Both the position numbers and the translations under genes were made by a program. Below the pieces are notes generated by a model, which saw only the letters and a program-made list of their open reading frames with translations, was not told the DNA's origin and did not search any database. DNA of 64,000 nucleotides from positions 192,820,001-192,884,000 of the forward strand of contig NC_091470.1 in assembly GCF_036971445.1 (NCBI RefSeq), written 5' to 3'. The first letter of the stretch is position 1. Every line of letters begins with the position of its first letter. This DNA is from Narcine bancroftii. Lineage: Eukaryota. Below, piece after piece: positions 16,467-54,972 of this stretch.

Positions 16467-16501
<35 letters not shown>

Positions 16502-18699: not shown

Positions 18700-20460
18700 G
18701 ATCACAAGATAGAGGAGTGGATAGTGGCCCATCAGCCCATCGAGTCTGCCCCACTGTTCTAATCATGAGCTGATCCACCCACCCAGTCAGCCCCACTCCC
18801 CGGCTTTCTCCCCATAACTCTTGATGCCCTGTCCCCACCAGTACTGTCAATCTCTGCCTTAAATACCCCCAATGACTTCAGTGCCACAGGCTCGCAACCC
18901 TCTGGATAAAACAAATTCTGCGTTTCTCTGTGTAAATTGATGCCCTTTTACCCAGTTGTGCCCTCTTGTACCAGACTCCCCGACCATAGGAAACATCCTT
19001 TTTTTAAATTTTTTTTTATTTTTCACACTATAAACCACATTGATCAAGATACATACATTTTCCTTTTCAAATATATATAGTGTCGTTTTCTCCCCCCCTC
19101 CCTCTTCCCATCCCACCCTCCCTACTTCCCCTCCCATTCATTTAAAGTTCAGAATCTAAGATTCATTAAACCCGTCAAACAATGTTGTCACTCAATAAAA
19201 ATAAACAAGAAATTCCACTGAGTCAATTCTTTTCATTCCCTTCTCCTTCTGTCATTTTAGGTGGTAGATGTCCCCGGTAGGTTTTCGCTATTGTGTTTCA
19301 TGTATGGCTCCCATATTTGTTCAAATTTTGTAATATTATTTCTTAAATTATATGTTATTTTTTCTAATGGAATACATTTATTCATTTCTATATACCATTG
19401 TTGTATTCTCAAGTTATCTTCTAATTTCCAGGCTGACATAATACATTTTTTTGCTACAGCTAGGGCTATCCTAACAAATCTTTTTTGTGCTCCATCCAAA
19501 TCAAGTCCAAATTCTTTGTTTTTTATGTTACTTAGGAGGAAGATCTCTGGGTTTTTTGGTATATTGCTTTTTGTGATTTTATTTAATATCTGGTTTAGAT
19601 CTTCCCAAAATTTTTTCACTTTCTCACATGTCCAGATTGCATGAATTGTTGTTCATGGGAAACATCCTTGCCACATCTACTCCATCCAGGCCTTTCAGCA
19701 TTCGAAATGCTTCGATCAGGTTCCCTCTCATCCTTCTGTACCCCAACAAGAACAGTCCAAGAGCAGACAAACATTCCTCATATTCTACCCCTTTCATTCC
19801 TGGTATCGTTCTAATAAATCTACTCTGAACCTGCTCCAACGCCAGCACGTCTTTTCTCAAATAAGGCACCCTAATGAGGTCTCACCAGTGCCCAGAGAGA
19901 GTCTTAACATCACATCCCTGACCTTGTATCCTATTCCTCTACATATGAATGCCAATGTTGCATTCGTCTTCTTCACCACTGACTCAACCTGGAGTCAACC
20001 TTCAGGGTGTTCTGCACTCCCAAGTTCCTTTGTACGCTCAAATTTTCAATTTTCTCCCCGTCTAAATAATAGTCCGCCTATCTATTTCTTCGACCAAAGT
20101 GCATGAGCGTACACGTTCCAACATTGTATTTCATCTACCACCTTTTTGTCTGTTCTCCGAATCTATCCAAGTCCCTCTGCAGCCTTTCCGAGTCCCCAGC
20201 TCCCCTAACACCCATTTAGGTAACATCTACAAACTCAGCCACAAAACCATCTATTCCATCATCCAAGTCATTTATATACGAAATGAAAAGATGTGGCCTG
20301 CACCCTGCCCTCTGTGGACCAAGACTGGTAACCACAAGGCATCCATAATATTCCCTTTTACCGCTCCAGCAGCCAATGCTCTCCCCACACCGATATCATC
20401 CTGTCATTCCATGGGCTCTCATCTTGTTAAATATCTTTATGTGATCCATCTTCTCAAAGG
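18700..20460 (-). mobile_element. CR1-type LINE fragment interrupted by an L1
   Basis: PYLRKDVLALEQVQSRF...RRMRGNLIEAFRMLKG. Confidence 0.8.
19001..19653 (-). mobile_element. 5'-truncated L1 with A-rich tail and target-site duplication
   Basis: ORF2 C-terminus KKFWEDLNQILNKI...IPLEKITYNLR...FEQIWEPY; flanks catAggaaacatcctt (18985-19000) and catGggaaacatcctt (19654-19669). Confidence 0.88.
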
Positions 20461-20564
20461 TCTGAAGGGGAAGATCGAGCAGGGGGGAGGGGCAAGGTCA
20501 TGGAAAAGGGGACTTTCGGGGTAAAGAGGAAATTCTGGGTGACAGGGGAAGGCTGGGATAACTT

Positions 20565-20840
20565 GCCCCCACCAGTACTCTACCCCAGTGTTACAGTGAC
20601 AGACTCGACCCCACCAGTACTGTGCCCCAGTGTTATACAGTGACAGATCCATCCCCACCAGTACTGTACCCCGGTAATACACAGTTACAGACCCAATCCT
20701 ACCAGTACCATACCCAGGTGTTATACGGTGACACATCCGTCCCCACCAGTACTGGACCCCAGTGTTATACAGTGACAGACCCGACCCCACCAGTAGCGTA
20801 CCCCAGTGTTGCACAGTGTCAGACCAATACCCACTGGTAA
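20565..20840 (-). repeat. 44-bp satellite, reverse complement of the 53835-54740 array
   Basis: About 6 copies of ccccaccagtactgtaccccagtgttatacagtgacaga. Confidence 0.85.
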
Positions 20841-21149
20841 TTTACTTCGATGTAATTACGACTACACTGGGGAAACTATGGGGTACAGCTCTGATACAGA
20901 CACAGACTGGGCCTGTGCTGACTTCTGACCCCGAGTTGATTCAAATTGCATTCAATGCATTTAGGTTGGAGTGTTTAAGCTGCACTCATTGGCAGCACAG
21001 CGGTGGAGAGGATCCCAGCTGTGGGGGAGCAGCAGAGAACACGGCACCACCTTGCCAAGTGATCATTAAGCAATATGTGACATCTCACAGCAGCAAGCAG
21101 GACAAGAATGATGAGAGACCTCCTGAAGGGCTCCACACTCCAACCGAGC

Positions 21150-24100
21150 CCAGACATGAACAGATCCACACACCGACAGAGCCGAGAGGACAGATCCACA
21201 CTCCATCGAGCACAGACACAAACAGATCCACACTCCAACAGAACCCAGAGAGGACGGATCGACACAACGACAGAGACAAGACAAGGGGCGAATCCACACA
21301 CCGACAGAGACAAGACAAGGGACGGATCCACACACCGACAGGCACCAGACAGCAGACAGATCCACACACCGACAGGCCCCAGACAGACGACGAATCCACA
21401 CACTGACAGGCCCCAGAGGAAGGATCCACACTCTGACAGGTTCAAGACAGAGGACAGTAACAGGTGTCAAAGGACAGATCCACACACCGACTGGCCCCAG
21501 AGGACAGATCCACACACCAACAGGCTCCAGAGGACAGATCCAATCACCGACAGGCCCCAGAGGACGGATCCACATACCGACTGGCCCCAGAGGACGGACC
21601 ACATACCGACAAGCCCCAGAGGACTGATCCACGCGCCGACAATCCCCAAAGGACGGATACACACAACGACAGGCCCCTGAGGACGGATCCATACACCAAC
21701 AGGCCCCAGAGGATGGATCAACACACCGACAGGTCCCTGAACATGGATCCACACACCGACAGGCCCCAGAGAACAGATCCACACAACGACAGGCCCCAAA
21801 CAGAGGACAGATCCACGCACTGACTGGCCCCAGAGGACAGATCCACACACCAACAGGCTCCAGAGGACAGATCCACATACCAAAAGGCCCCAAGGAAGGA
21901 TCCACACACCAACAGGCTCAAGACACAGGACAGTAACAGGTCCCAGAGGACAGATCTACACACTGACAGGCCCCAGAGAACAGATGCACCCACCGACAGG
22001 TCCCAGACGGAGGACTGATCAACACACCAACAGTCCCCAGAGATCGGATCCACACACCGACACACCTCAGAGGACAGATCCACACACAAGCAGGCCCCAG
22101 AGGTCAGATCCACACACACGGACTGGCCCCAGAGGACAGATCCACACATCGACATGCCCCAGAGGACGGATCCACACACCGACAGGCTCCAGACAGAGGA
22201 CAGTAACAGGTCCCAGAGGACAGATCCACACACTGACAGGCCCCAGAGTACAGATGCACACACCGATAGGCCTCCAACAGAGGACTGATCCACACACCGA
22301 CAGTCCCCAGAGGACAGATCCACATTACGACAGGCTCCAGAGGACAGATCCACATACCAAAAGGCCCCAAGGAAGGATCCACACACCAACAGGCTCAAGA
22401 CACAGGACAGTAACAGGTCCCAGAGGACAGATCTACACACTGACAGGCCCCAGAGAACAGATGCACCCACCGACAGGCCCCAGACGGAGGACTGATCAAC
22501 ACACCAACAGTCCCCAGAGATCGGATCCACACACCGACACACCTCAGAGGACAGATCCACACACAAGCAGGCCCCAGAGGACAGATCCACACACACGGAC
22601 TGGCCCCAGAGGACAGATCCACACATCGACATGCCCCAGAGGACGGATCCACACACCGACAGGCTCCAGACAGAGGACAGTAACAGGTCCCAGAGGACAG
22701 ATCCACACACTGACAGGCCCCAGAGTACAGATGCACACACCGATAGGCCTCCAACGGAGGACTGATCCACACACCGACAGTCCCCAGAGGACAGGTCCAC
22801 ATTCCGACAAGCCCCAGAGGACTGATCCACACACCGACAGTCCCCAGAGAACTGATCCACACACCGACAGATCCCAAACAGAGGACAGATCCACACACCG
22901 ACTGGCCCCAGAGGACAGGTCCACACACCAACAGGCCCCAGATGACAGATGCACTCACGGACAGGCCTCAGACAGAGGACAGATCCACACACTGACACAC
23001 CCCAGAGGACATATCCACACACCGACAGGCCCCAGAGGACAGATCCACACACCGACAGGCCCCAGAGGACAGATCCACACACTGACAGGTCCCAGAGGAC
23101 GGATTCGCACACCGACAAGCCCCAGAGGACGGATACACACACCAGCAGGCCCCAGAAAATGGATCCACACACCGACAGACCTCAGACAGAGGACAGATCC
23201 ACACACCGACAGGCCCCAGGGGACGGATTAACACACCCGCAGGACCCAGAAGATGAATCCACACACTGACAGGCCCCAGAGGAAGGATCCACACTCCGAC
23301 AGGTTCAAGACAGAGGACAGTAACAGGTGTCAAAGGACAGATCCACACACCGACTGGCCCCAGAGGACAGATCCACACACCAACAGGCTCCAGAGGACAG
23401 ATCCACTCACCGACAGGCCCCAGAGGACGGATCCACATACCGACTGGCCCCAGAGGACGGATCCACATACCGACAAGCCCCAGAGGACTGATCCACGCGC
23501 CGACAATCCCCAAAGGACGGATCCACACAACGACAGGCCCCTGAGGACGGATCCATACACCAACAGGCCCCAGAGGATGGATCAACACACCGGCAGGTCC
23601 CTGAACATGGATCCACACACCGACAGGCCCCAGAGGACGGATCCACACACCGACAGTCTCCAGTCAGAGGACAGTAACAGGTCACAGAGGACAGATCCAC
23701 ACACACCGACTAGCCCCAGACGACAGATCCAGACACCAACAGGCTCAAGAGGACAGATCCACTCACCGACAGGCCCCACAAGACGGATCCACACACCGAC
23801 AGGCCCCAGAGCAAGGATCCACACTACGACAGGTTCAAGACAGAGGACAGTAACAGGTATCAAAGGACAGATCCACACACCGACTGGCCCCAGAGGGAGG
23901 ACTGATTAACACACCAATAGTCCCCAGAGGACTAATCCACACAACGACAGTCCACAGAGGACAGATCCACACACCGACACATCCCAGATGACAGATTAAC
24001 ATACCGACAGGCCCCAGAGGACGGATCCACATACCGACAAGCCCCAGAGGATGGATCCACACACTGGCAGGCCCCAGAAGACGGATCCACACGCCGTCAG

Positions 24101-27100
24101 ACCCCAGAGGAATGATCAACACACTGGCAGGTCCCAGAAGATGGATCCACACACTGGCAGGCCCCAGAAGACGGATCCACACGCCGTCAGACCCCAGAGG
24201 AATGATCAACACACTGGCAGGTCCCAGAAGATGGATCCACACACCGACAGGCTCCAGACAGAGGACAGCAACAGGTCCCAGAGGACAGATCCACACACTG
24301 ACAGGCCCCAGAGTACAGATGCACACACCGACAGATCACAGACAGAGGACTGATCCACACACCGACAGTCCCCAGAGGACGGATCCACATTCTGACAAGA
24401 CCCAGAGTACTGATCCACACACCGACAGTCCCCAGAGAACAAAAACAGAGGACAGATCCACACACCGACTGGCCCCAGAGGACAGATCCACACACACGGA
24501 CTGGCCCCAGAGGACAGATCCACACATCGACATGCCCCAGAGGACGGATCCACACACCGACAGGCTCCAGACAGAGGACAGTAACAGGTCCCAGAGGACA
24601 GATCCACACACTGACAGGCCCCAGAGTACAGATGCACACACCGATAGGCCTCCAACAGAGCACTGATCCACACACCGACAGTCCCCAGAGGACAGATCCA
24701 CATTCCGACAAGCCCCAGAGGACTGATCCACAAACCGACAGTCCCCAGAGAACAGATCCACACAACGACAGGCCCCAAACAGATCCACGCACCGACTGGC
24801 CCCAGAGGACAGATCCACACACCAACAGGCTCCAGAGGACAGATCCACATACCAAAAGGCCCCAAGGAAGGATCCACACACCAACAGGCTCAAGACACAG
24901 GACAGTAACAGGTCCCAGAGGACAGATCTACACACTGACAGGCCCCAGAGAACAGATGCACCCACCGACAGGCCCCAGACAGAGGACTGATCAACACACC
25001 AACAGTCCCCAGAGATCGGATCCACACACCGACACACCTCAGAGGACAGATCCACACACAAGCAGGCCCCAGAGGACAGATCCACACACACGGACTGGCC
25101 CCAGAGGACAGATCCACACATCGACATGCCCCAGAGGACGGATCCACACACCGATAAGCCTCCAACAGAGGACTGATCCACACACCGACAGAGGACAGTA
25201 ACAGGTCCCAGAGGTCAGATCCACACACTGACAGGCCCCAGAGTACAGATGCACACACCGATAGGCCTCCAACAGAGGACTGATCCACACACCGACAGTC
25301 CCCAGAGGACAGATCCACATTCCGACAAGCCCCAGAGGACTGATCCACAAACCGATAGTCCCCAGAGAACAGATCCACACAACGACAGGCCCCAAACAGA
25401 GGACAGATCCACGCACTGACTGGCCCCAGAGGACAGATCCACACATCAACAGGCTCCATAGGACAGATCCACATACCAAAAGGCCCCAAGGAAGGATCCA
25501 CACACCGACAGGCTCAAGACACAGGACAGTAACAGGTCCCAGAGGACAGATCTACACACTGACAGGCCCCAGAGAACAGATGCACCCACCGACAGGCCCC
25601 AGACGGAGGACTGATCAACACACCAACAGTCCCCAGAGATCGGATCCACACACCGACACACCTCAGAGGACAGATCCACACACAAGCAGGCCCCAGAGGA
25701 CAGATCCACACACCAACAGGCCCCAGAGGACGGATCCACACACCCACAGTCCCCAGAGGACAGATGCACCCACCGACAGGCCCCAGACGGAGGAATGATC
25801 CACACACTGACAGGCCCCAGAGATCGGATGCACACACCCACAGTCCCCAGAGGACAGATCCACACACCGACAGGCCCCAGAGGACAGATCCACACACCGA
25901 CTGGCCCCAGAGGACGGATCCACACACCGACACGCCCCAGAGGACGGATCCACACACCGACTGGCCCCAGAGGACAGATCCACACACCGACAAGCCCCAG
26001 AGGACAGATCCACACACTGACTGGTCCCAAAGGACAGATCCACACATCAACAGGCCCAGACAGAGAACAGATGCACACACCGACAAGCCCCAGAGTATGG
26101 ATCAACACACCAACAGGCTCAAGACAGAGGACAGTCACAGGTCCTAGTGGATAGACCCACACTTGACAGGCCCCAGAGGACAGATGCACTCACCGACAGG
26201 CCCCAGAGGACAGATCCACACACCGACACACCCCAGAGGACAGATCCACACACCGGCAGGCCCCAGAGGACGGATCCACACACTGACAGGCCCCAGAGGA
26301 CGGATTTACACACCGACAAGCCCCAGAGGACGGATCCACACACCGACAGAACCCAGAGGACGGATCCACATACCGACAGCCTCCAGACCGAGGACAGTAA
26401 CAGGTCTCAGAGGACAGATCCACACACCGATTGGCCCCAGATGACAGATCACACACCAACAGGCTCAAGACAGAGGACAGTCACAGGTCCTAGTGGATAG
26501 ATCCACACTTGACAGGCCCCAGAGGACAGATGCACTCACCGACAGGCCCCAGAGGACAGATCCACACACCGACACGCCCCAGAGGACAGATCCACACACC
26601 GGCAGGCCCCAGAGGACGGATCCACACACCGACAGGCTCAAGGCAGAGGACAATAACAGGTTCCAGAGGACAGATCCACACACTGACAGGCCCCAGAGGA
26701 CAGATGCGCCCACCAACAGGCCCCAGACATAGGACTGATCAACATACCGACAGTCCGCAGAGGACTAATCCACACAACGACACACCAACACACCCCAGAG
26801 GACAGATCCACACACCAACAGGCCCCAGAGGACGGATCCACACACCGGCAGTCCCCACAAGACGGATCCACACACCGACATGCCCCAGAGAACAGATCCA
26901 CACACCGACAGGCCCCAAAAGAGGACAGATCCACACACCGACTGGCCACAGAGGACAGATCCACACACTCCGACTGGCCCCAGAGGACAGATTCACACAA
27001 ACTAACTGGCCCCAGAGGACAGATCCACACATCAACAGGCCCAGACAGAGAACAGATCCACACACCAACAGGCTTCAGAGGACAGATCCACTCTCCGACA

Positions 27101-28198
27101 GGCCCCAGAGGACGGATCCACATACCAAAAGGCCCCAGAGGACGGATCCACACACTGACAGGCTCAAGACAAAGGACAGTAACAGGTCCCAGAGGACTGA
27201 TCCACACACCGACAGGCCCCAGAGGAAAGATCCACACACCGACTGTCCCCAGAGGACAGATCCACACACCGACAAGCCCCAGAGGACTGATCCACACACC
27301 GACAGTCTCCGAAGAACAGATCAACACACCGACTGGCCCCAGAGGACAGATGCACACGCCGACAGTCCCCAGAGGACAGATCCACACGCCGACAGTCCCC
27401 AGAGGACAGATCCACACACTGACAGGCCCCATAGGACAGATCCACACACTGACAGGCCCCAGAGGACAGATCCACACACCGACAGTCCCCAGACAGAGAA
27501 CAGATCCACACACCGACTGGCCCCAGAGGACAGATCCACACACTGATTGGCCCCAGAAGACAGATCAACACACTGACAGGCTCAAGACAGAGGACAGTAA
27601 CTGGTCCCAGAGGACAGATCCACACACTGATAGGCCCCAGAGGACAGATGCACACACCGACAGGCCTCAGACAGAGGACTGATCCACACACCGACAGGCC
27701 CCAGAGGACGGATCCACACACCGACAGGCTCCAGACAGAGGACAGTAACAGGTCTCAGAGCACAGATCCACACACAGACAGTCCCCAGAGGACAGATCCA
27801 CACACCAACAGTCCCCAGAGGACAGATCCACACACCGACAGGCCCCAGAGGACAGATCCACACACCGACTGGCCCCAGAGGACAGATCCACACACCGACA
27901 CGCCCCAGAGGACAGATCCACACACGGACTGGCCCCAGAGGACAGATCAACACACTGACAGGCTCAAGACAGAGGACAGTAACAGGTCCCAGAGGACAGA
28001 TCTACACACTGACAGGCCCCAGAGGAGAGATGCACACACCGACAGGCCTCAGACAGAGGACTGATCCACACACCGACAGTCCCCAGAGACGGATCCACAT
28101 ACTGACAAGCCCCAGAGGACAGATCCACACACCAACAGGCCCCAGAGGACGGATCCACACACCAACAGGCCCCAGAGGACAGATCCACATACCAACAG
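21150..28198. repeat. ~7-kb 30-bp minisatellite with higher-order structure
   Basis: Unit aggacagatccacacaccgacaggccccag, over 200 copies by length; variant blocks recur. Confidence 0.95.
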
Positions 28199-29859
28199 TT
28201 CCTTACTCAGGGTCAGGGATGCCTCTTTAGTGGACGGCAAAAAGAACACAGTCTCCCCTGTGAATTTTATGCACAGCATTATTACCCTCTCGCCATCCAG
28301 AGTCTGAGACAGACCTATTAAACCACCTTCCAGACCAATGGATGGACGTATATTACATTGTGCGCCAGTGTCCCACGTCAATAATCTGAAGGGAGATGCC
28401 ATCACAGGAGCCTCGCTTCCAGGAACTGCAACTGCTGGGTAGGTCCAAGGGGCTGCCATTGCAGAGCTGCACCCCACCACGATGAAAATCCTATGCAGAC
28501 AGGAATTACCGCACCTGCTCGTTCCACCAGCAGAGCACACAATGAATCCGTTCTCCAAAGAGCAGAGCAGGGAAGGGGTCGTGGTGGGAATGTCTATGCA
28601 CTGAGGTCTGTGATGCTGTTCTTCTCGAGCGCAGGGAGCATGTTCTCCACCGGGTCAGCCCGATTCTTCTCCAGCCTCATGAGTCCCAGGAGCTGCCGAG
28701 GATCTCCATTTCCCGCAGTTATCCTGAGCGAAATTCCTTGGTTGAGGGAGTGGGCTCTCCAATGATGACCCAACCCCCAATGAAGTCCAGAAACGGCATT
28801 GGCAATCTGCAAGCCACTGCTGCTCCCTCAGCCCTCGGGGCCCAGTCAAAGACCTTGCGGGGCAAACTCTTCTTCCTCCAAAAAACACCTCCGCTGGGAT
28901 GGGAATGTGCTCCCTCGTTTTTCAGTGATCTCTGCACTTAACAATTTTTAAAACCATAAATTCTTAGTCGACGATACCACCCACTCCCACAGTGACCACC
29001 CAGCAGTACTGCTCCTCCCACACTGTGATACTCTCCTTGGAGAGTCATTAACTGTATTCTCCATTTGTAGGGCAGCGCGGATACAGCGCCAGCAACCTGG
29101 GTTCAAATCCCTTGCTGTCTGTTAAGAGTTTGTACGTTCTTCCTGTGACCTGCGGTGTTGTAGTTTAATTGGGTGGCCCGGACTCATGGACTGGAAGGGC
29201 CTGTTACTGTGCTGTAGGTCTGAATTTCAAAACGTACCACATTAACCTCACGTGCAAACCCAAAAACCCAATGAGTCATGACAGGATTGGGAGCTTGGCG
29301 TAGGTTAAAGTCAGAGTAAGGGGTGGGGGTTAGGATTGAGGTCAAAGAGGAGGCAGGGCAGAACCGATCTGGAGGGAGGAGGAACAGGGGAGCAGTGTGT
29401 GTAGCCAGGGACATGAATGGGCAAGGAGAAACACTGGAGGAGGTGGGATGAGGGAGGGTGGAGGGAGGGTTGAGGGGCAGGAGGGGATGAGAGGGTGGGG
29501 GATGGAGGGATGAGGGGGGTGGGGAGGAGGATGGAGAGGTGGGGGAGGGAGGGATGAGGGGGGTGGGGGAGGGATGAGGGGGGTGGGGGAGGGATGAGGG
29601 GGGTGGGAGAGGGATGAGGGGGGTGGGAGAGGGATGAGGGGGGTGGGGGAGGGAGGGATGAGGGTGGGAGGGATGAGGGGGTGGGGGAAGGAGGGATGGC
29701 GAGGTGGGAGAGGGGGAATGATGGATGAGGGGGGAAGGATGAGGGGGGAAGGAGGGATGAGGGGAAAAGAAGGATGGGGAGGGTGGGGTAAGGGCAGGAG
29801 GGAGGGATGAGGAGGGGGCGGGACCGTGGGCCCTGCCTGGGGGCGGGCCTCTCGGCGGA

Positions 29860-30125
29860 AGTGGGAACCCGAGGGCCTCGGGAGCAGACTGAGCTCCCTG
29901 TCCCTGCCCCTGCACCCCGCGTCGGGCCCGGGTTCGCGTTGCCCGTCTCCGCACCACACCCACCTTCCGGCTTCATGACGGCCGCCATTTTACTTCCGAC
30001 TCCCATTGGCTCGAAGCCGCGCCCATTGGCAAGGCCCACCCTGTGCTGCATGTCTATTGGCTACTACTCCAATCAAGCATATAAAATGGGCGGTACTATT
30101 AGCTAGAAAATTAGCCAATTAGAAT
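29860..30125 (-). promoter_or_regulatory. CAMTA2: CAMTA2 CpG-island promoter
   Basis: YY1 motif GCCGCCATTTT over the ATG, an adjacent ETS-like CGGAAGT, five CCAAT/ATTGG boxes (30004-30119) and local CpG enrichment. Confidence 0.7.
29964..29988 (-). CDS. CAMTA2: CAMTA2 coding exon 1 (MAAVMKPE)
   Basis: AAAATGGCGG start context in a CpG-rich patch and a GAAG|GTGGGT donor in phase 1. It joins the 18637 exon in frame (MAAVMKPE-ENNNHIKVFLP) and resembles short vertebrate CAMTA N-termini (MAAENKPE-type, from memory). Confidence 0.75.
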
Positions 30126-32315: not shown

Positions 32316-33403
32316 GCCTCTATCTCATACTTCGACTGCGGTGTCTACAGATTTCCACGATTTATTTCTTAATATTTTAACTCCTAACATATTTATGTAA
32401 ATTTGCTCCGTGGTCCTGGAGAAACGCTCTCTCATCTTTACCGTGTGAGCACAGTATGAATGATAAATAAAGGTGACGACTTGAAGTCAGCCAACAGCAG
32501 ACAGTAAAAATTCCTGTTATCTGGAATTTAAGCATCCGGCAAAAAAAATGTGGAAAAATTCGAGTTAAAATAAGCGTGCCTCGCCATTAGTTCGCCAATC
32601 ACCCAACACGCAATCTCAAGCAACTGGAAAATACACATCTGGCAATTACTAATCCCCATAGGTGCCGGATACCAGGGGTTTTACCTGTTTATTATGCTCA
32701 CACAATCTTGGTAAAGTTTCACCCCAGATTTATTTTCCTTGACATTGAAGGCCAGGTTGGCAAGTCAGCACAAATAAGAAAACAAGTCTTATGAACAAGA
32801 GTGATCACATAGCATCAACCAGCACTCGGTAACATCATGGGAACATGGCCTAACACCAAAGCTCTCAGGTTTTCTGATCACATTTTCCAAAAGGCAGCAG
32901 CTGGCACAAGCAATGGTGAGACCCACAAGGTCAATGTCTGCCTGTCCACACCATCAGGTCAACGACCACCTGTTGACACCGTCAGTTCAATGTCCGCCTG
33001 TCTACACCATCAGCTCCTGTGGCAGAAACGGGCCCCCCCCCCCCAAACCCCAGCACAGTCTGGGGCAGGAACCATGGAGAAGGGGTGAAGCTGGACTCTC
33101 ACAGATATGGGCACGCAGGATGAGGAATGTTACAGGCAGCCGGATGGAGCCACAGACCACTTCAGGAGGTCGGGACTGTGGGGAACATCATGCCCTCTCA
33201 CCACTGGACCAACCTTCTGGCTTCCAGCTCAAGTCAGAGAGGTGCGACAGAATCTCTTCCACCACCTTGCGGAATGGGCAATGGCAGGCTGCCCCGTGTC
33301 CCACCAGAGTGCACACCCCAACCCCACAGACACCCAACCAGTGCAATAAACAACAAACGAATGAACAGTCCAATGTAAGGTCAATAAACGATAACTGGTG
33401 GGC

Positions 33404-33586
33404 TCATTCCTCAGCTTGCTGCCACTGCTCTCTCCAGAGAATGCCTCTATAGTCGAGTGGCCGTGCCGCTAGCCCCCAAACCTGGAGCCTCTCCTCAGCT
33501 TCCCCACTGAAAGTAGTTGGGCACCAGATGCCTGTCGGAATGGGGCACTGCTTCTGAACCCCGAAACTCCAGCGGGGGTGGAAAAA
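33404..33586 (-). CDS. INCA1: INCA1-like terminal coding exon (FFHPRWS...QWQQAEE*)
   Basis: ctctgcag acceptor, 61 open codons ending EE-TGA as human INCA1 does; minus-strand AATAAA near 32730 and 32690. Confidence 0.7.
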   Translation of the reverse strand, partial: FFHPRWSFGVQKQCPIPTGIWCPTTFSGEAEERLQVWGLAARPLDYRGILWREQWQQAEE

Positions 33587-34097
33587 CTGCAGAGAGAATC
33601 AGAGATTTTGATCGACCCAACAAAGTCCAAAACCCCTTTGATACCCCAAGACATTTTTCAAATGAGAATACTCCAGAAACATCGTGGGATGAGACCTTGG
33701 GACAAATCAACGCTAACTGACTTGATCTTCCATGTAAATTAAAGCAGGGGAAGTATCACATACTGAGGACACAGGACACACCATCCCATCACACACTCCC
33801 ATGCAGCCGTTGGCTCAACGCTATTATAGAATCCAGCACTGTCTGAAGGGAGTTTGTACGTTCTCACCATAACTGTGTGAGTTTACTCTGGGCACTCTGG
33901 TTTCTTCCACCCTTTCAAAATGCACAGGGCTGGGGTGGGGTTTGTAGGTTAATTGGGTGGCATGGGCTCGTGGGCCGGAAGGAACTGTTACCATCCTGCC
34001 TGTCTAAATTTAAAATTTAAAAACTCCCAGGGTCAGACACAGAGTGAAGCTCCATCCACACCATCACTGAAGGATAACTGGACCAGACAAACTTTAC

Positions 34098-34245
34098 CGG
34101 CTCTCTATCCTCCAGATCGGAGCTGTTTGGGAAATCTGTGATGCCAGGACAGTCATTCTGTTGTCGCTCCTGATCAGTCAAGGATTCCTCTGCCTCTGCT
34201 GCCAGTCCCTGCGTTCTGCAGCCTCCCCATTTCAGAGCCTTTAGT
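34098..34245 (-). CDS. INCA1: INCA1-like coding exon 5 (LKALKWGG...DLEDREP)
   Basis: ttttag acceptor in phase 2, CCG|GTAAAG donor; LKALKWG resembles human LKKAQWG. Confidence 0.8.
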
Positions 34246-34639
34246 CTAAAATGCAAGATGCACTGGTCATTCTGTGCCTGTGCAGATAGCCTGCTGCTAA
34301 GCCAACTCCCTGGGGCAGGTTCCTACCCTTCCCTGCTCCCTACCTTGACATGCCTGGCACTGAGACCCACAGCACACAGCAGTCAGAGGCCCTTCCATTG
34401 CCTGAAAGGGGGCAGTCACAGCGGGCCCAGCGATAGTCTCAACCCTCCCTCTACCAAGCCTCAAATGCAGGATTGATCAACCTTCTGAAGGACGAGGGAG
34501 AGTGTATAACTCCCAAAGTGTGTTGGGAGGTAGGCTGGAGAAAAGCCTGATGTTTATATATTTTCAGCATATATTGGTGAACATTGTCTTGTGGTTACTT
34601 ATTACTGTCTGTTATTATGATCCTACATATGTTGATTAA

Positions 34640-35760
34640 AGGCCTGATGGGAGAGGGCAGGGAGGAGGGATAGAGGAAGGGGAGTGAGTGAGGAAGGGGA
34701 GGAAGAGAGGAGTGGGAGGGAGAGAGGTGGGGAAAGAGAAGAGGGGGGTAGAGAGAGAGAGGAGGGGTAAAGAGAAAGGAAGGGGAAAGGAGAAGGGAAT
34801 GGAGGCAAGAGGGGGAAGAGAATGGAGGAGAGGAGGGAGAAAGGGGGAAAAGAAAGGAGAGGAGAGAGAATGGGGAGAGGAGGGAGAAAGGGGGAGAGAG
34901 AGGGGGAAGAGAAGGGAGAGAGGGGAAGAGAAGGGAGAGAGGGGGTAGTGGGGTTGAGAAGGGAAGGGGAGAGAGGGCAAGAGGGTAGATAAGGTTTAGA
35001 GGGGAAGAAGGGTAGACGGGTGGGGTTGAGGGGGTAGTGATGCAGAGAAGGAGAGGTGGAGAGGAGGTAGAGGGGAGAGAGGGACAGATGGGAGAGGAGG
35101 GGGAAGGAAGGTTGCAGAAGAGAGGAAGGAGAGGAAGGGGAGGGAGGAGGGGAAGAGGTGTGGAGAGGGGAGGGAGAGAAAAGGGAAGAGAAGTACATGC
35201 AGGTAGAGGAAGGTAGATACATTAGAGAGTACAATGGGAAAGGGCGAGGAAGGGGTGAGATGTGGTGAGGGCAAGAGGGAGAGAGCAGGGAATGAGTAGA
35301 GAGCAGTCATAAAGGAGGGGGAGGGGAAGCAGGGTTTGAGGAGGTGGCTGGAGGAAGGGAAGAGGGCGAGAGGAAGGCGAGAGGTGGTGGACAGAAGGGC
35401 GGTGATGAATGGGGAGAGTTGGGGAAGGAGGGGAGAGGAAGGGTGGAGGGGAAGGAGGGGAGGGGGCAGAGTAGTGGAGAGAAGAGAGTGGAGAGAAGGG
35501 GGAGGTTGGGTGAGAAGATGGAGAGAGGAGGGGAGCAGTGGTGGGGGGAAGAAGGTGGGGGGGAAGAGAAGGTGGGTGGGGGAGAGAAGCCAGGGGAAGG
35601 TGGGGGGAGAGAAGGTGGGGAGAGGAGGTAGGGGAAGGTGGGGGGGGGAGGAAAAGTGGGGGAGAGAGAGTGGGGAGGCAGGGGAGAGAAGATGTGGGGA
35701 GAGAGAAACCAGTAGAAGGTGGGGGGGGGGGGGCGGCAGATGGCAGAGGGAGAGAAGGCA
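34640..35760. repeat. ~1.1-kb polypurine low-complexity tract
   Basis: Almost exclusively G/A on the + strand. Confidence 0.85.
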
Positions 35761-35821
35761 GTTGTGTGTGGGGAGCAGAACCAAGGACTCATGGGACAGA
35801 GAGGGATGGGGCACTCCCTAC

Positions 35822-36024
35822 TGATCAATACAGCTCTGTCTCCTCTTGAGCTCCTCCAGGTGACAGGTCACGGCCAAGACTGGCCTCTGTCTGTGTGACC
35901 TGTCCCGGCCTCTCCTCCTGCCATACAGTTCTCTCGGGGAAGGCAGTCTTTCCAACATCAAGCCTGAGTTTGGGCAACTGGCATCCAATCTGGCATCTGG
36001 TCTCTCAGCAGCATGACCACTCAG
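35822..36024 (-). CDS. INCA1: INCA1-like coding exon 4, conserved core (LPSPRELYGRRR...LAVTCHLEELKRRQSCIDQ)
   Basis: 203 nt, AG/GT bounded; strong resemblance to human LPPPEMLWRRKKRR...RAVTYHLEDLRRRQSIINE. Confidence 0.85.
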
Positions 36025-36109
36025 CTGGAGAGAAAAGGTGGGGGGGAGAGAGGAAGAGTGTGTGTGAGTGAGGAACGAGTCAACAGCTGAGGTCCAGAGG
36101 CAAGGGAAA

Positions 36110-36470
36110 CCACGAGAGTGAGAATGGGGAGAACACTGGGGGAGGCGGAGGACGGGGGCTCACTGGGGGAGGGACACTGAGGAGGTAGAGAATGGGGTTT
36201 CATTGGGGAAAGTGGAGAATGGGGGTTCACTGGGAGAAACGGGAAGGTAGAGAATGGGGGTTCACTAGGGAGAGGTGAAGAATAGGGGTTTACTGGGGAG
36301 GCAGAGAATAGGGTTTCACTGGGGATGGACACTAGGGAAGGTGGAGAATGGGGGTTCACTGGGGAGGCGGAGAATGGGGGTTCACTGGGGAGGCGGAGAA
36401 TGGGGGTTCACTGGGGAGTGACACGGGGAAGGTGGAGAATGGGGGTTCACTGGGGAGGCAGAGAATGAGG
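36110..36470. repeat. ~26-bp tandem repeat (ggagaatgggggttcactggggaggc)
   Basis: About 10 degenerate copies. Confidence 0.8.
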
Positions 36471-36634
36471 AGACATGCTGGGGGAGGGGAAGAATGGAGG
36501 TGTCATATGGAGAGGTCAGGGCACTGGGGACCAGCTCAGACTGGCCCTGGACACTGCCCTCGTCTCACCCTCCAGGAGACCATGCTCTCCCAGCAACCGA
36601 GGACAGGCACAGAGCTCCAACCAGGACTACTTAC

Positions 36635-36677
36635 CAATGGCAGGGGAGCTTTGTCATACATCTCCATCAAATGAGGT
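36635..36677 (-). CDS. INCA1: INCA1-like coding exon 3 (PHLMEMYDKAPLPL)
   Basis: 43-nt exon, ctacag acceptor, GTAAGT donor; bridges phase 2 to 0; positionally equivalent to human PTWLEEQHIPPML. Confidence 0.7.
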
Positions 36678-37644
36678 CTGTAGGACACAAGCAGAGAGCA
36701 CAGAATTGGAGAAAGGTTGCCTGTACCGTGGGCTCCCTTTCCCTCCCACCACACATCCCCCTCACCCCACCCCAAACCTCCCACCCTGGTGAACAGGGAG
36801 ACCCTCCCTCTCCCCAAAAGATGTTCACTGCCTCTCTCCTAACAAATGCCAACAGAAAGATGGGGCTCTAGTCTCCAGGGCTGACACTGCCATCAGTTGG
36901 CAACACCCCCCAGGGTGACGCACACTCTCCTCAGTGCTCCCAGACTGGACATTATCCCCTGACGTCCACCTCCCCCACCACAGAGGTCCTGTCCTTCTGG
37001 TCCTTCACCCCAAGAGGCATTGCATCACCCCTTCCCTAGCAAGCCTGTATTGGGTCTCAGGAGTTTGGACCACTTCCCGGGGAGGTTCATTTATTGTCAC
37101 ATAATGATGCATTAAATGTAATATGCATGGTATACTTCAACATTTGCCTGCAGCAAGGCAAACAAAGTCCCCAATAGCATGGCCCGGTGTCCCCAACAAG
37201 AGAAAGAGAAGCAAAAGAGACCCAAAGTGTCCATTGATATTTACCTCTAGTGCTAGTTCCGGCTCCTATGTCAGGCTGAAAGCCTGCACAGTACCATGAC
37301 CAGGGAATAGGACCCTGCAGAGCAGTGCTGTGCCTCTGCTCCCCCGGGTCTACACCAGCGGCAGGGTTGTCGTTACAGCAGCTCTGGCAGTGCCGCCATG
37401 TTCTTTTTACAATCTTCAAGTGACGTGCTTCACAAAGACTCCACAGGAGTGGAGGCTTAGCAGTAGGGCAGAACCAACAGAGTGGAGTTGGGGGGGGATG
37501 GTTGGGGAGTGAGGGGTGGACAATTTGAATTGTCCAATGGTAGTTGCAAAGCATCGGAATGCAAGTTAATACAGAGGGTCATCAAAACAGCCTAGAAGAT
37601 GACTGGGGTACTCATGTCCCTGAACAGGGAACTCTGGTACTTAC

Positions 37645-37761
37645 CTCCCCTGCTGGCTCAAGCCCTCCAGATCCACCCCACTGCCCCAGGTCCCTAGAGG
37701 AGGGGGGCACAATGGGCTGGGTTCAGCCTGGCCTTCGCACCGGTTCACCATCTTCGAACAC
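37645..37761 (-). CDS. INCA1: INCA1-like coding exon 2 (CSKMVNR...LEGLSQQGR)
   Basis: tgcag acceptor, AG|GTAAGT donor, phase 2-2; resembles human CSRVVSR...KNLNQRP. Confidence 0.75.
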
Positions 37762-38484
37762 CTGCACTGGGACAGGCAGAGGGTGTGGGAGGGGGGGGTT
37801 GAGGGAGGGATGAGGGTGAGAGTGGGAGAAGGGATAGGGAAATGGGAAAAGGGATAGGGGAGGAGGAGAGGGACATCAAAATTTGGTGAGAAAAAAGGGG
37901 GGACAGAGGCAGTGGGTGAGAGGGGGAGGAAGGGGGAGAGATGGGAGGAGGAGTGAAATGGGGAGAGGAAGAAAAGGAGAGGGGGTGAGAGAGGCAGGTG
38001 TGAAAGGGAGAGGGGGTAGAGGGAGAGGATGCGAGGGAGGGGAGAGGGGTAGGGAAATAGGGTTAGAGAAAGTGAGAGAAAAAAGGTGTGAGAGAATGGG
38101 GAGGGAGAGAGGGAAGGGGCTGAGAAAGATGGTGGAGGGAGAAGCAACAGGGATGGCAGGGGAGAGGGCTAGGAAGGAATGGAAAGGGATAGGAATGAGG
38201 GAGGGAGGAACAATAGGGATGCCAGGTGAGAGGGGATAGATTGTAGGAAAGCGAGAGAGTTGGGAAGAGAGAATAAACAGAAAGCATTAGAAGGAATAAA
38301 TGGGTTCTTTCAGTTTGGGAAGCTGTAACTGTGAGTGCATCAGGCTTCAGTGTTAGGTCACAGGTATTAGTGCTGGAGCCCTAGGGTTCAGTGCTGGGAC
38401 CCACGGATAAGTGCCAAGGACCCAGGGATCAGTCCGAGGATCCAGGGATCATGCCAAGGACCCAGGGATCAGTGCTGGGACCCC

Positions 38485-39723
38485 TGGGAGAATGCCACTG
38501 TCTGGAAGTCAATCCTCCTAGCTCTCCGGTCGAAAGGCCTGCCCATCTCCCAGGAGCAGGAAATCCTCCCCAAGGCACTCCACGCCACCAGATCCCTCCC
38601 CTGTACTGCTGCACCACATGAAAGGCTCTTTTCCTTCCCCCGGAAGTCGGCGTCAGGAACAACACTTCCACCCTGACTAACAACAAGACTAATCTTCTGG
38701 TCGAGAAGGTCCACCTCCTCCATGCAAACCCCCAGTACACTTATGTGGAGTACCTGGATGGGTGGCAAGACACGGTATCTATCCCCTCTCACCTGCCATC
38801 CCTATTGTTCCTCCCTCTGTCATTCCTCTCCCGTTCCTTCCTACCCCTCTCCCCTGCCATCCCTGATGCTTCTCCCTCAACCTCTGCCCTCATCTTTCTC
38901 AGCCCCTTCCCTCTCTCACTCCCCATCCTCTCACAACTTTTTCCCCTCTCCCTTTCTCTATCCCCATTTCCCTACCCCTCCCTCACATCCTCTCCCTCTA
39001 CCCCCTCCCCCTTTCACACCTGCCTCTCTCACCCCCTCCTTTTCTTCTCCCCATTTCACTCCCCCTCCCACCTCTCCCCCTTCCTCCCTCTCTCACCCAC
39101 TGCCTCACCAAATTTTGATATCCCTCTCCTCCCCTCCCCCTCACCACTACCCCCTCTCCCTTTTCCCATTTCCCTACCCTTCTCATCCCTTCTCCCATCC
39201 CCTCTCTCACCCTCATCCCTCCCTCAACCACCCCCCTGCCTGTCCCTGGTCATGCAGGGGACCCCTCGACCAAGCAATCAGCATCCCCTCACCCGACCAC
39301 TGCTGGCGCCCTGCCCCAACCCCAGACCATGCAACCCCACAGCCCTATTAACCACCCCTCAGCCACCAGAGACACAGCCTGTCGCACAAAACAGCAGCTG
39401 AGCCACAGCAAGCCCTGCGATGGTCACAATGACAGAAGAGACCACCGGACAGGCTGAACCTGTAATGAACATTGATTCACTTCACCCCGCTGGACTCTGT
39501 TTAAAAGGGGTGAATGTAGTGGAACCTCTGTATGTACTGGCCCACCCCTGCACCAGTAACTCCTTCCCTCAGAATCCCCATATAGGCTGATACGCCCAAA
39601 CCCCTCCCTCAGTACCTGCCTTGGAACCAAGCCAGCAACATGCGAGACGTGCTGATGTCTTATGGTGATTAAAGCCTCTTTAAGACAACTTTCAGTCTAA
39701 TGTGGTTGATCAATAGCCCTACA
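38485..39723 (+). mobile_element. Gypsy-type LTR retrotransposon 3' relic (integrase C-terminus, polypurine tract, 3' LTR 39515-39723)
   Basis: NATVWKSILLALRSKGLP...PHERLFSFPRKS...LVEKVHLLHANPQYTYVEYLDGWQDTVSI; aaaaggggtgaa tract followed by TGT...ACA with ATTAAA. Confidence 0.8.
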
Positions 39724-40214
39724 GTCATATGGTGTGGTAACAGGCCATTTTGGCCCATGAGCCTGTGCCACCCAATTGACAACACCCCCAGTACACTTCG
39801 AATGGTGGGAGGAAACCTGAGCACCCGGGGAGAATGTACCAGTGCCTTACAGACAGCGTGGGATTTGAACCTGATCGCTGGCACTGTAACAGCTTGGTAC
39901 TGGCCACTATGCCAATCTTGCAGCCCTATATGTTGGTTTCTGTTTTATTTACTGGGCAGGAGCTTTCACAACAGGCAGGACAGTTAGTACAATGCTGTTA
40001 CAGCACCCGGTTCGAATCCCATGCTGTTTTCCTCCGGGATCTGCGGTTTCCTCCCGCCATTCAAAACGTACCAGGGGTTGTAGGTTAATTGGGTGTAATC
40101 GGTTGGAATGGGCTCGTGGGCCGAAAAGGCCTGTTACTGAGCTGTATGTCTAATTTTTAAAAAATTTAGAACCCAATGCCATCAACGTTCTGGGGAAATA
40201 TACAAGTAACATAC

Positions 40215-40294
40215 GTCACAAATGGTATGAAATTCTCATTCTCCTCTTTACAGCTTTCGTGAAGGCTCCAGGGTGTTTTAAAGTGCTGAGTCAT
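40215..40294 (-). CDS. INCA1: INCA1-like coding exon 1 (MTQHFKTPWSLHESCKEENENFIPFVT)
   Basis: Acceptor ccaagcag at 40300, ATG at 40294, GTATGT donor in phase 2; NFIPFVT resembles human NLIPFAK. Confidence 0.7.
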
Positions 40295-40792
40295 CAGAGC
40301 TGCTTGGAGAAAGATCAAACAAATTACCACAACAGAACTGCATTCACCAATTACAAAGAGGCAAGGATGGAGACAGAGGGAACAGGTCAGCGTGAGAGGA
40401 AAGAGAGAGGGATGAGACAGATTTGTTTTTTACACAGCCAATTTCCCAGAACGCAGTCCGTGTTAAAAGATTGGAATGGGAATAAGGGACTCATTTCTGT
40501 TCTGACATTTTACCTCCTCGACCCCTAGTTATTTTGATGGGTTGCCTGAGGTCGAAACTGAACTGCAGGTGACCTGTGAACCATGGGTTAATGAATAGGA
40601 TGTCCAGCCTCCTTAAATGCAGCGCTACTGTCTGAACTCGCTGTGTGATACGGATATTTGGAGCTTTGGTCGTTCCTTAGTGATGGCCGCTCCAGAAGGT
40701 AGGGAGATGGAAAAATAATCACGCAAACTCTATGTAAAAAACATATCAGAGAGGGAGGTCAGATGAACAGGACACAGAGAGAGGAAGAGAGA

Positions 40793-42990: not shown

Positions 42991-43644
42991 GGCCAAGGGC
43001 AGTGAACACAGGAGGGAGATGGTCAAACCTCAGGCTGACGGTGCAGCCAGGAGTATGGGTGACTCAGCAACGCACTGACCATTAACCACTCTGCGCCCAC
43101 CCCCACCTACCATGCACAGCACCCAGTGGAGCTCTGGTTGTCCACTGTTCCCCAAAGGTGCTGCAACCAATCAGGAGGCGATAGCAGGATCATAGCTGTG
43201 TCCATTCCCCCTCCACCCCCTCTCTTACCCCACCTACCCCTCTGCTCCTTCTACCTCACCACCCTGCTTCTTGTCCTCACCCCCACCCTCCTCAGACCCG
43301 CACCCCCTCCTCTCTTCATCCTTTCTATCTTCCTCACACCCCTCATCCCACCTGCTCCTCTTCTCCCCCTCACCACCCTCCTTCCTGTTCTCACCCCCAC
43401 CCTCCTAACCCCCCCCACCGCCCTCACATCCCCGCCTCCTCACCCCCCCATCCATTCCCACCTCTTCACTCCTGCCATCCACCTCAACCCCTCCCACCAC
43501 CTCATCCCTCCCATCCTACCGCACCTTCCCCTCAACAACCCTCCCACTCCACAAAACCCTCCCATCCTACCGCACCTTCCCCTCATCATCCCTCTCCTCT
43601 CCTGATCCTCCTCCCCTCCTTCATCCCTCCCTCCACAGCTCCAC

Positions 43645-43870
43645 CTTCCGACCTTCTGCGGAACTGACGCGCGGCCGCTATTCCCGCCCTGTGCGTCACT
43701 TCCGCGGCCAGGGCCGGCGGGCTGTCATTGACGGCGGAGCGGAGCTGTGAGTTCACGCTGAGCGGCGGGTTTGGCCGACACGCCGCAGCCTTCCTGGCCC
43801 ACACAGCGGCCGCAGGGCCCTCCTGCTCCGGGAAATCAGCGCTCCTTCTATTACCGGCGGTTCCGACGGA
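43645..43870 (-). promoter_or_regulatory. INCA1: CpG island: likely INCA1 promoter and non-coding first exon
   Basis: CpG-dense, with TGCGTCACTTCCG (CRE-like plus ETS) and a candidate minus-strand donor GAAG|GTGGAG at 43644. Confidence 0.55.
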
Positions 43871-45529
43871 ATGTGACAAGGAGAAGGCCCCTCACAAACG
43901 GAGAAAGAAGTAAAAGAGGGTCCCCTCAGAGACTGACCATGGAATCACCTCCAGCGCTGGTTACAGGATATTAGATTAAATATGTTAAACACATTATCTA
44001 CCTCAACCTCTGCCTGCTGTCAGCCTTTGAACATTGCCCACTGGCCCCTCACAGAGAAAGAAGCAAAAGCGAGACCCCCTCAGAGACTGACCATGGATTC
44101 AACTCCAGCTCTGGTTACAGGATATTAGATTAAATATGTTATATGGTTACAGGATATTAGATTAAATATGTTAAATATGTTTAACATATTCAACCTCTGC
44201 CTGCTGTCAGCCTTTGAACATTGCCCACTGGCCCCTCACAAACAGAGAAAGAGAAGCAAAAGCAAGACCTCCAAAGAGGATTCACCTCCAGCACTGGTTC
44301 CAGGATGTCAGATTAGAAATATAATCTACTCAATGTACTTCATCTTCCGCCTGCTGCAAGGGAAAGAGAGTTGCCGTGAGCATCGTCCAGCGCCCTAACA
44401 ATAGGAGAAAGAAGCAAAAGTGAGACTCCCTCAGAGACTGCCCGTGGATTCGCCTCCAGCTGTGGTTGCAACATGTTAGATTAAATATGTAATCTAAAGG
44501 GGAAACCCTTGCTCCAGCTTTCTCTCCACCACAATTCTAAGATGCCTCCACACTCCTTTCTTTCCCAGAAAGAAAGAAAAATGTAATATACATGATATGT
44601 TTTCAACTTTTGCCATGCTTAAGGCAAACTAAGAGTTGCCTTGAGCATTGCCTGTTGGAGAAAGAGAAACAAAAACAAGTCCCTTCAGAGTCAGTGAGTG
44701 TCCATGGATTCGCCTCCACTGCTCCCACAGCCTGTTTGATCCATCGGCAACCTGAGCTCCAGGTCCAAACCTCTGATGCGTTTGGGGAGTTTTCAATGCC
44801 TGAAGCCCCTCGGTGCCCTCCTGGACCCGATACCTGGTTCCCATGAGCCCAAGGTTAGAGCCACTCCACTGGTTCCCAGAGAGGGGAGAGGTGCGAACCC
44901 CACAGGGGAGCAGTGGCAGTGAGTGGAGAGCCAATCAGCAAGGCAGAACACAAGGAGCCTGGGCCCTACCGTTCAATAATGTGAAACCAGGAAGTCTGCA
45001 GGTGCTAGGGTAGGCATTTTTATGAGAACTTCAGGATAGTCTCAGCTTGATGAAGGGCTCAGGCCCAAAATGCTGATTATATATCTTTGTCTCCAGGACC
45101 TGCTGAGTTTTCTTTTTATTTAAAAACATATAAACATACAGCATTCCGGCCCTCGAGCCCATGCTGCCCAATTAACCTTCAACCTTGTACATTTTGAACC
45201 ATGGGAGGAAACCCATGCAGATACAGGGAGAACAAACAAACTCTTTGCAGGTAGCTCAGGATTCAAACCCAGGTCCCAATCACTGGTGCTGTAATGATGT
45301 GGCACAGACCACTATGCCAACCTTGCCGCCCTTCCTATTCAATATTGAATCGCTATTCAATGATTCATGGTTGATTTGGCCATGACTACAACTCCCAACT
45401 ACCCACATGTTCTCCACGTGTACCTTGTACAGAAGGATGACTCTGGTGAGGGTAGAACCAATCAGAGATAAAGGTGGGGGGGGGGGGGAGGGGAGGAAAA
45501 TTGTGTGCCTGGATGGGCAAGTCCTTAAT

Positions 45530-54866: not shown

Positions 54867-54972
54867 ATGTCGGGCGCCTCGGTCAAAGTGGCCGTGAGGG
54901 TGCGGCCATTCAACGAGCGGGAGCTCCGTCTGCGCTCCTCCTGCATTGTCCAGGTGTCGGGTAACTCCACCA
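54867..54972 (+). CDS. KIF1C: Kinesin-3 first coding exon ([35 protein letters not shown])
   Basis: Canonical KIF1 N-terminus; 106 nt, A|GTGAGT donor, upstream acceptor acgcag at 54825. The paralog is assigned by synteny with CAMTA2/INCA1, not by sequence alone. Confidence 0.85.

Follow-up and report, generated by a model that had tools for sequence, protein, structure and literature searches.

Mammalian INCA1 is a cyclin A-CDK2 binder and kinase inhibitor (PMC4272264, PMC3130024), its action on CDK2 having been called 'similar to p21 and p27' (PMC4272264), and in sheep the gene lies between KIF1C and CAMTA2, in the same order as in the ray locus analyzed here (PMC11276604). Function was carried over from mouse and human, and a literature search found no functional study of INCA1 in fish, which counts against that inference. 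The proline-motif segment is reportedly the mapped cyclin-binding region of human INCA1, and the orientation of KIF1C, INCA1 and CAMTA2 in mammals is taken to be as here. CRL4-DCAF12 substrates with a di-glutamate degron include CCT5 and MAGEA3.

The window was a stretch of 64,000 nt from Narcine bancroftii (GCF_036971445.1, NC_091470.1, positions 192,820,001-192,884,000), in which a first-pass annotation had proposed a hidden INCA1-like gene. The six minus-strand exons given there (80, 117, 43, 203, 148 and 183 nt, with canonical ends) were reproduced and joined into an open 257-aa frame (774 nt, equal to 257 codons plus TGA, with no internal stop; Table 1). All five introns were GT...AG (2453, 967, 610, 1576 and 511 nt; phases 2, 2, 0, 2 and 0), and the end of exon 1 fell within the N-terminal motif FxPF..S.xVxR. 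Of 20,000 ATG/AG-started random chains of matched lengths drawn from the same 8 kb, one was open; since this control leaves aside the reader's freedom to pick from 23-45 AG..GT candidates for each internal length, homology was taken as the real proof of the exon chain. Exon 4 was matched by 18/18 orthologs (tblastn), had a genome-wide match count of 1 and returned Pfam INCA1 when queried alone (E=2.7e-4); the other four of the five pieces queried singly (exons 1, 2, 5 and 6) returned no family. Isoform breakpoints of other species coincided with ray exon junctions, exon 2 being precisely what isoforms from the basking and horn sharks skip and the intron 4 codon the point where macaque and manta isoforms diverge. 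Intron positions were found to be shared on this indirect measure.

Table 1. Features of the INCA1 locus (positions are those of the window).
Feature	Position	Strand	Remarks
CAMTA2-like gene	2446..30006	-	11 collinear pieces by tblastn, Mobula CAMTA2-like proteins as queries
Two AATAAA hexamers, candidate poly(A) signals	32688..32734	-	670-710 nt past stop
INCA1 coding exon 6	33404..33586	-	183 nt including stop; end W...AEE*, candidate di-glutamate C-degron
INCA1 coding exon 5	34098..34245	-	148 nt; helix end (LK..KWG), acidic linker
INCA1 coding exon 4	35822..36024	-	203 nt; LPxPxEL motif, basic run, most of conserved helix
INCA1 coding exon 3	36635..36677	-	43 nt; ME.Y..A motif; weak tblastn support, 8/18 orthologs
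INCA1 coding exon 2	37645..37761	-	117 nt, phase 2-2
Inverted duplication, intron 1	37787..39240	.	arms 37787-38241 and 38777-39240
INCA1 coding exon 1	40215..40299	-	matched by 8/18 orthologs (tblastn)
Exon 1, coding part	40294-40215	-	80 nt from ATG; acceptor AG ends at 40300
Exon 1, conserved start ATG	40294-40292	-	
Four upstream RefSeq exons	43111..44844	-	44844-44640 (GC donor), 44394-44339, 43721-43576, 43160-43111; boundaries reproduce XP_069771734.1
CpG-rich stretch, likely INCA1 promoter	43401..44000	.	CpG obs/exp 0.81-0.87, 400-nt windows
KIF1C-like kinesin-3 first coding exon	54867..54972	+	PDB kinesin-3 matches, E~1e-9

The 257-aa model was identical to residues 155-411 of the Narcine bancroftii RefSeq protein XP_069771734.1 and used the same six exons, which bears out the chondrichthyan source suggested earlier. 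XP_069771734.1 matched Pfam INCA1 (PF15142) at 33.2 bits (gathering cut-off 27) and no other family, and PF15142 was matched by 62/62 aligned family members. BLASTP with macaque INCA1 recovered the ray protein (32% over 145 columns, E=9e-8). A mammal-based profile (five mammal or mammal-like rows, cut from an alignment that included the ray) ranked exon 4 first among 2,015 window reading frames (E=1.1e-7) and matched the 257-aa model at E=2.7e-21, against 0.37 for the reversed model; a profile without sharks also placed exon 4 first of the 2,015 frames. The top two ESM Atlas clusters were INCA1 (0.95). Leads to DUF4682 (0.82) and FAM217 (0.80) fell below the 0.9 bar, and with the INCA1 clusters skipped the Atlas gave no usable feature match for the core. 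In a gene tree built from 31 rows, in which 7 of the 28 internal branches stayed open, the gene followed species (rays 99/96; sharks plus rays 84/91), and the ray terminal branch (0.31) was not long. INCA1 was single copy in the Narcine genome; two weak PF15142 matches were seen elsewhere (E=5.0 and 8.1).

Because the Pfam score, the neighbors and the species-following tree agree, the gene was assigned as an INCA1 ortholog at least as old as the jawed-vertebrate ancestor, as had been proposed. It is an intact single-copy ortholog that has come down by vertical descent from that ancestor within the block KIF1C(+)/INCA1(-)/CAMTA2(-), and this assignment is virtually certain. No relative outside jawed vertebrates appeared among the named matches (most of the 74 rows being unnamed and only 10 new ones named). 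The gene is not hidden: RefSeq already predicts it here, and the name INCA1 or INCA1-like is carried by 4 of the 12 shark and ray species seen (Pristiophorus, Cetorhinus X1, Leucoraja and Mobula hypostoma), as well as by coelacanth, bichir and bowfin. Since the RefSeq prediction exists and public names show the jawed-vertebrate range, the worth of the locus as a gene discovery is small. The named shark and ray proteins were 46-50% identical to the ray over the alignment (three named rows) and shared its start, its motifs and, except in Cetorhinus, its end; the differences are those of ordinary species divergence.

The exons could also belong to a silent or decaying copy or have been chained by chance, and the donors of introns 1 and 4 (GTATGT, GTAGGG) are off consensus. 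Against this stand 257 codons with no stop or frameshift, ortholog support for every exon, a single genome copy and the unremarkable terminal branch, making such a reading extremely improbable. The RefSeq form, labeled 'uncharacterized protein' with no gene name, differs from the model in 154 additional N-terminal residues from four upstream exons. These exons join in frame, extensions short or long also occur in three shark models, and position -3 is a pyrimidine at the conserved ATG but a purine at an upstream in-frame Met pair (RefSeq positions 132-133), which lies in the CpG-island exon, so that the start could lie upstream, giving either the 411-aa protein of RefSeq or one of 280 aa begun at the Met pair. 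However, the extensions of different species bear no mutual resemblance, 0/18 orthologs matched within 40.4-46 kb (only three have any extension to compare), the first RefSeq intron requires a GC donor, the first two exons are situated among repeats, outside the CpG island or on its margin (the second amid local repeats), and Met 1 of the model faced a Met in 57/58 rows. A longer N-terminus is unlikely on this evidence, and the four upstream exons are probably 5' untranslated or mis-predicted. XP_069771734.1 thereby gains a name, and its 154-residue extension is put in doubt.

The 257-aa protein was predicted to be mostly disordered with one helix; AlphaFold2 (horn shark row) returned a single confident helix, the remainder at low confidence and a tail pLDDT of ~50. 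Solved structures related by sequence were limited to one chance row (E=1.1), and a search by fold gave 0 matches. A conserved core of ~45 aa had been put forward; the core was found to span 52 aa (residues 104-155), and two further short parts, the N-terminal motif and the terminal W...EE, are also kept family-wide. The core holds the LPxPxEL motif (L107 and P108, 62/62; P110, 61/62; L113, 60/62), a basic run that is probably a nuclear localization signal, and one amphipathic helix (H135 and L139, 61/62; Q143, 62/62; K150, 59/62). Motif order, the KIF1C/CAMTA2 neighbors and the intron 4 codon (macaque) are alike in mammalian INCA1 and the ray, and the terminal EE is common to many family members. 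The motifs quoted in the first-pass annotation were all present in the same order, but LPSPRELYG is the shark form: the ray keeps Ser-Pro and R-x-L-Y-G, whereas macaque has LPPPEMLW. The motif-helix spacer is 28 residues in the ray and 36-37 in mammalian INCA1, only 22/52 core positions match macaque, and the ray C-terminal half is barely alignable with mammals. The description of the ray form as highly divergent was not borne out, as it is close to the shark, caecilian and coelacanth forms and the longer branch is that of mammals. Mammalian INCA1 is the fast-evolving form, so results obtained with mammalian proteins may reflect a derived state. The shark-to-mammal alignment flags residues worth mutating in a CDK inhibitor that lacks an experimental structure (~15 core positions, the N-terminal motif and the terminal EE).

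By analogy with mammals, core 104-155 would dock on cyclin A-CDK2 in the nucleus and lower kinase activity, and lowered CDK2 activity would restrain S-phase entry. That ray INCA1 works in this way is rather likely, and the account as a whole, an INCA1 ortholog most likely acting as in mammals, holds with high probability. Cyclin A1-like, cyclin A2-like and DCAF12 genes are present in the Narcine genome, the A1-like and A2-like labels being our presumed assignment. When the core (RefSeq 250-315) was modeled in complex with cyclin A of an invertebrate as a proxy, with no CDK chain, alignments or controls, the score was 0.21 (mark 0.34).

The ancestral job might instead have been something other than CDK inhibition, the near-invariant helix (V..H...L...Q..I..LK...W) binding ING5 or a coiled-coil scaffold, say, with cyclin binding secondary or mammalian. 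Conservation on the helix face equals or exceeds that of the proline motif, but L107, P108, P110 and L113 are equally fixed, and that fixed segment is the one said to bind cyclin in the human protein. ING5 is one of nine further pull-down partners of mammalian INCA1 (PMC3130024). This alternative is rather doubtful. INCA1 resembles the Cip/Kip inhibitors (p21/p27/p57) in being disordered and in pairing a short motif with a helix, and could be read as their distant relative, with shark RELYG standing for the RxLFG cyclin-binding motif and the linker helix and a tryptophan coming next. R/K-x-L-Y/C-G occurred in 10/12 shark, ray and allied rows, and the order motif-helix-W recurs in the four Cip/Kip proteins encoded by the ray. 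Yet profile-profile comparison with those four proteins gave probabilities of 0.1% and 1.0%, Pfam CDI (PF02234) matched 0/62 members, and R/K stood at the motif position in just 31/98 family rows, an RxL cyclin-docking motif not being kept across the INCA1 family. Homology to Cip/Kip was undetectable and was rejected, descent from a common source being very improbable.

The ray model ends AEE* on a tail predicted to be flexible, resembling the DCAF12 substrates CCT5 and MAGEA3 in both respects. A terminal EE was found in 36/62 aligned rows (0.45 expected), with a small residue (A, S or P) at -3 in 26 of these 36; the 26/62 rows lacking it include white shark, basking shark, bichir and zebrafish, the white and basking shark models ending before the terminal W...EE. 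These sequences fit a DCAF12 degron. The terminal -EE may set INCA1 turnover through CRL4-DCAF12, a proposal we make tentatively, and with equal reserve INCA1 may be a conserved CRL4-DCAF12 substrate whose di-glutamate degron was kept from sharks to mammals while the C-terminal half diverged. A limited search of the literature found no report of INCA1 as a DCAF12 substrate. The idea is cheap to test; if true, CRL4-DCAF12 would be directly tied to cyclin A-CDK2 control, and isoforms or lineages with no EE end would make a stable inhibitor.

The claimed position between CAMTA2 and KIF1C was confirmed by tblastn and by PDB kinesin matches (KIF1C-like). The CAMTA2-like gene lies downstream of INCA1 on the same strand and extends beyond the window on its left side. 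The KIF1C-like gene is head to head with INCA1 and has its own CpG island (53.0-53.9 kb); a stalk exon beyond the window matched PDB KIF1C (E=4.2e-32). Because KIF1B-alpha has the same tail as that matched here, the name KIF1C rests partly on synteny. Direct in-frame read-through from INCA1 into CAMTA2 exon 2 is impossible in this locus, since the CAMTA2 acceptor needs phase 1 and the INCA1 donors are of phase 2 or 0. The inverted duplication in intron 1 (398/420 aligned bases complementary) ends 26 nt from the exon 2 acceptor.

Exon 4 by itself matched Pfam INCA1 (PF15142, E=2.7e-4) and no second family. Used as a query, it recovered 11 out of 269 candidate proteins; every one of the 11 carries PF15142 and 10 are named shark or ray records. 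The top match was XP_069771734.1, a 411-aa 'uncharacterized protein' of Narcine bancroftii whose last 257 residues are identical to the six-exon model of the first-pass annotation. The full protein scored 33.2 bits against Pfam INCA1 (cut-off 27), its sole family, and the profile check proposed with that annotation gave no better family. Exon 4 was also ranked first of 2,015 window reading frames (E=1.1e-7) by a mammal-type profile whose five source rows are mammalian or mammal-like, two of them by record name and three by likeness. Across the 3.33-Gb ray genome, exon 4 gave one match and Pfam INCA1 two further rows (E=5.0 and 8.1). The PF15142 score and the mammal-type profile bear out the claimed orthology, and the gene is a real, ordinary INCA1 ortholog. 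It is not 'hidden', as had been claimed: RefSeq already predicts it, and INCA1 or INCA1-like stands in the record name for 4 of the 12 species of shark and ray in which PF15142 was seen (Pristiophorus, Cetorhinus, Leucoraja, Mobula hypostoma).

Positions of the INCA1 exons, neighbouring genes (window coordinates) and conserved residue groups (257-aa model)
Feature	Position	Strand	Remarks
INCA1 coding exon 1	40294-40215	-	GT...AG chain
INCA1 coding exon 2	37761-37645	-	GT...AG chain
INCA1 coding exon 3	36677-36635	-	GT...AG chain
INCA1 coding exon 4	36024-35822	-	GT...AG chain, PF15142 match
INCA1 coding exon 5	34245-34098	-	GT...AG chain
INCA1 coding exon 6	33586-33404	-	GT...AG chain, ends with stop
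CAMTA2-like exons	30006 to at least 2446	-	running downstream along minus strand
Kinesin-3 gene start	54867	+	first coding exon
Conserved group 1	F25/S29/V32/R34		62 rows
Conserved group 2	L107-P108-x-P110-x-x-L113 + basic run		62 rows
Conserved group 3	V132, H135, L139, Q143, I146, K150, W154		62 rows
Conserved group 4	terminal W...EE		62 rows

The six exons were found in phase as first placed, giving 774 nt (257 codons plus stop) with GT...AG at every intron. An open frame arose in 1 of 20,000 random exon chains of equal lengths; this control takes no account of the freedom of exon choice in the original model, so the case for the gene rests on homology. XP_069771734.1 has 4 additional upstream exons (154 residues), the first intron of this extension requires a GC donor, and the upstream exons were matched in 0 of 18 orthologs, few of which have extensions to compare. 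The Met of the 257-aa model stood opposite Met in 57 of 58 aligned rows and, judged from this alignment, is a better start than that of RefSeq; an in-frame Met pair 23 residues before it is a possible alternative. The predicted junctions are backed by isoforms of other species: macaque and manta isoforms part ways within the codon that intron 4 interrupts, and exon 2 is skipped exactly in isoforms of two sharks. Intron 1 holds an inverted duplication (arms 37787-38241 and 38777-39240, 95% complementary over 420 bases) that stops 26 nt from the exon-2 acceptor; pairing of the arms in pre-mRNA could influence use of exon 2. Transcription likely starts at a GC-rich, promoter-like stretch (43650-43710) where the third upstream exon of the RefSeq model begins, containing a CGTCACTTCCG word that we take to be a composite CRE/ETS site. 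Local repeat families were seen at 43897-44493, 42840-43004, 36153-36491 and 27500-28200 (units of about 150-190 nt, 55 nt, 26 nt and ~30 nt); RefSeq's second upstream exon is embedded in the first.

The ray gene had been called highly divergent, which the comparisons do not support. In a tree of 31 rows (7 of 28 inner branches open) it grouped with Mobula and Leucoraja (99/96) within sharks and rays (84/91) on an end branch of 0.31. Macaque and platypus shared a stem of 0.83, with end branches of 1.08 and 1.22, the macaque branch being inflated by an isoform with a different tail. Over the 52-position core, identities to the ray numbered 39 in horn shark, 31 in caecilian, 29 in coelacanth and 22 in macaque. 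The ray form is typical, and it is the mammalian form that has diverged most. Searching 1.84 billion representatives with a profile turned up 74 rows (E<=0.001), most of them without a name; no row with a name came from outside jawed vertebrates. Among ten new rows looked up, INCA1(-like) was named in macaque, platypus, coelacanth, bichir, bowfin, piranha and eagle, and the zebrafish and Xenopus records were labelled 'uncharacterized'; the family also occurs in caecilians, turtles, lizard, sturgeon and salmon. Xenopus-type members (P0073, P0117, P0085, P0088, P0095) are long proteins that have repeats at the N-terminus and in which part of the core is duplicated; the core is doubled in record P0044. 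Titles and abstract openings, most subscription journals lying outside the search, yielded no study of INCA1 evolution.

The proposed conserved core stood, although not at ~45 aa: the 62-row alignment set it at about 52 aa, with two further motifs lying outside it and four groups of positions in all. AlphaFold2 (horn shark row, 42 sequences; mean pLDDT 57.8) placed a single confident helix across the conserved block. In mammalian INCA1 the proline motif and basic run are reported as the cyclin-binding region and nuclear signal. The ray genome holds cyclin A-like genes, which we assign to A1 and A2. Two papers describe mammalian INCA1 as a cyclin A1-CDK2 partner that binds and inhibits CDK2 (PMC4272264, PMC3130024). 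From this inhibition, the region map and the ray cyclins, we infer that ray INCA1 would probably be nuclear and inhibit cyclin A-CDK2 through residues 104-155. A proline-directed kinase may act on S109-P, a position at which 67 of 98 rows have Ser/Thr. An intronless processed cyclin A1-like copy with one in-frame stop (L019, contig C1) and its intron-bearing parent (L020, contig C16) were also seen.

The INCA1 motif RELYG resembles the Cip/Kip RxLFG motif, and INCA1 may act in a Cip/Kip manner. Membership of that family was ruled out: just 31 of 98 rows retain the R/K, and comparing profiles with the four Cip/Kip proteins of the ray yielded a probability of 0.1-1%. Of the four loci that encode them (L015-L018), two share a contig, where they face opposite ways and are separated by 47 kb. 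The accessible text of PMC4393124 mentions RxL for ING5 only. The terminal EE was present in 36 of 62 rows (0.45 expected from composition, the rows being related), the other 26 including incomplete models, alternative isoforms and genuine losses. For DCAF12, PMC9929631 describes binding to C-terminal di-glutamate that depends little on the residues upstream, and the ray genome has a DCAF12 gene. A literature search showed no DCAF12-INCA1 connection, the sole paper listed for both terms seeming unrelated, and INCA1 was absent from one small supplementary file of each of three degron papers, large screen tables excluded. The EE is a tentative, rather doubtful candidate DCAF12 degron.

A stalk exon of the kinesin-3 gene, outside the window, matched KIF1C in PDB (E=4.2e-32). 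The orientation of KIF1C, INCA1 and CAMTA2 in mammals was taken as matching. Since the order is common to the ray and mammals, an ancestral block, as the first-pass annotation proposed, is the simplest reading. The sheep order is ZFP3, KIF1C, INCA1, CAMTA2, SPAG7 in PMC11276604, and INCA1/KIF1C labels a human locus in PMC12206034. INCA1 is joined to CAMTA2 in four manta RefSeq models, which indicates identical adjacency in a second ray; these four CAMTA2-like Mobula birostris isoforms with INCA1 sequence at the start (P0010, P0015, P0018, P0019) either reflect transcriptional read-through or are fused models. The window offers no way of joining INCA1 directly to CAMTA2 in frame. In two carp-order models (P0134, P0139) INCA1 is instead fused with a TNF-family (TNFSF13) domain, which suggests another downstream neighbour and a block probably broken in these fishes. 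Distinct CpG islands (43.4-44.0 kb and 53.0-53.9 kb) argue against one promoter for INCA1 and KIF1C. Several kinesin motor exons are present twice (locus L005 8300-9450; locus L006 680-3050, which holds 200 N), the second set looking degraded, through either local duplication or assembly artefact. Inside the KIF1C-like gene, a long pyrimidine-rich tandem repeat (about 57700-64000, unit about 18 nt) accounts for two ~1000-codon minus-strand open frames.
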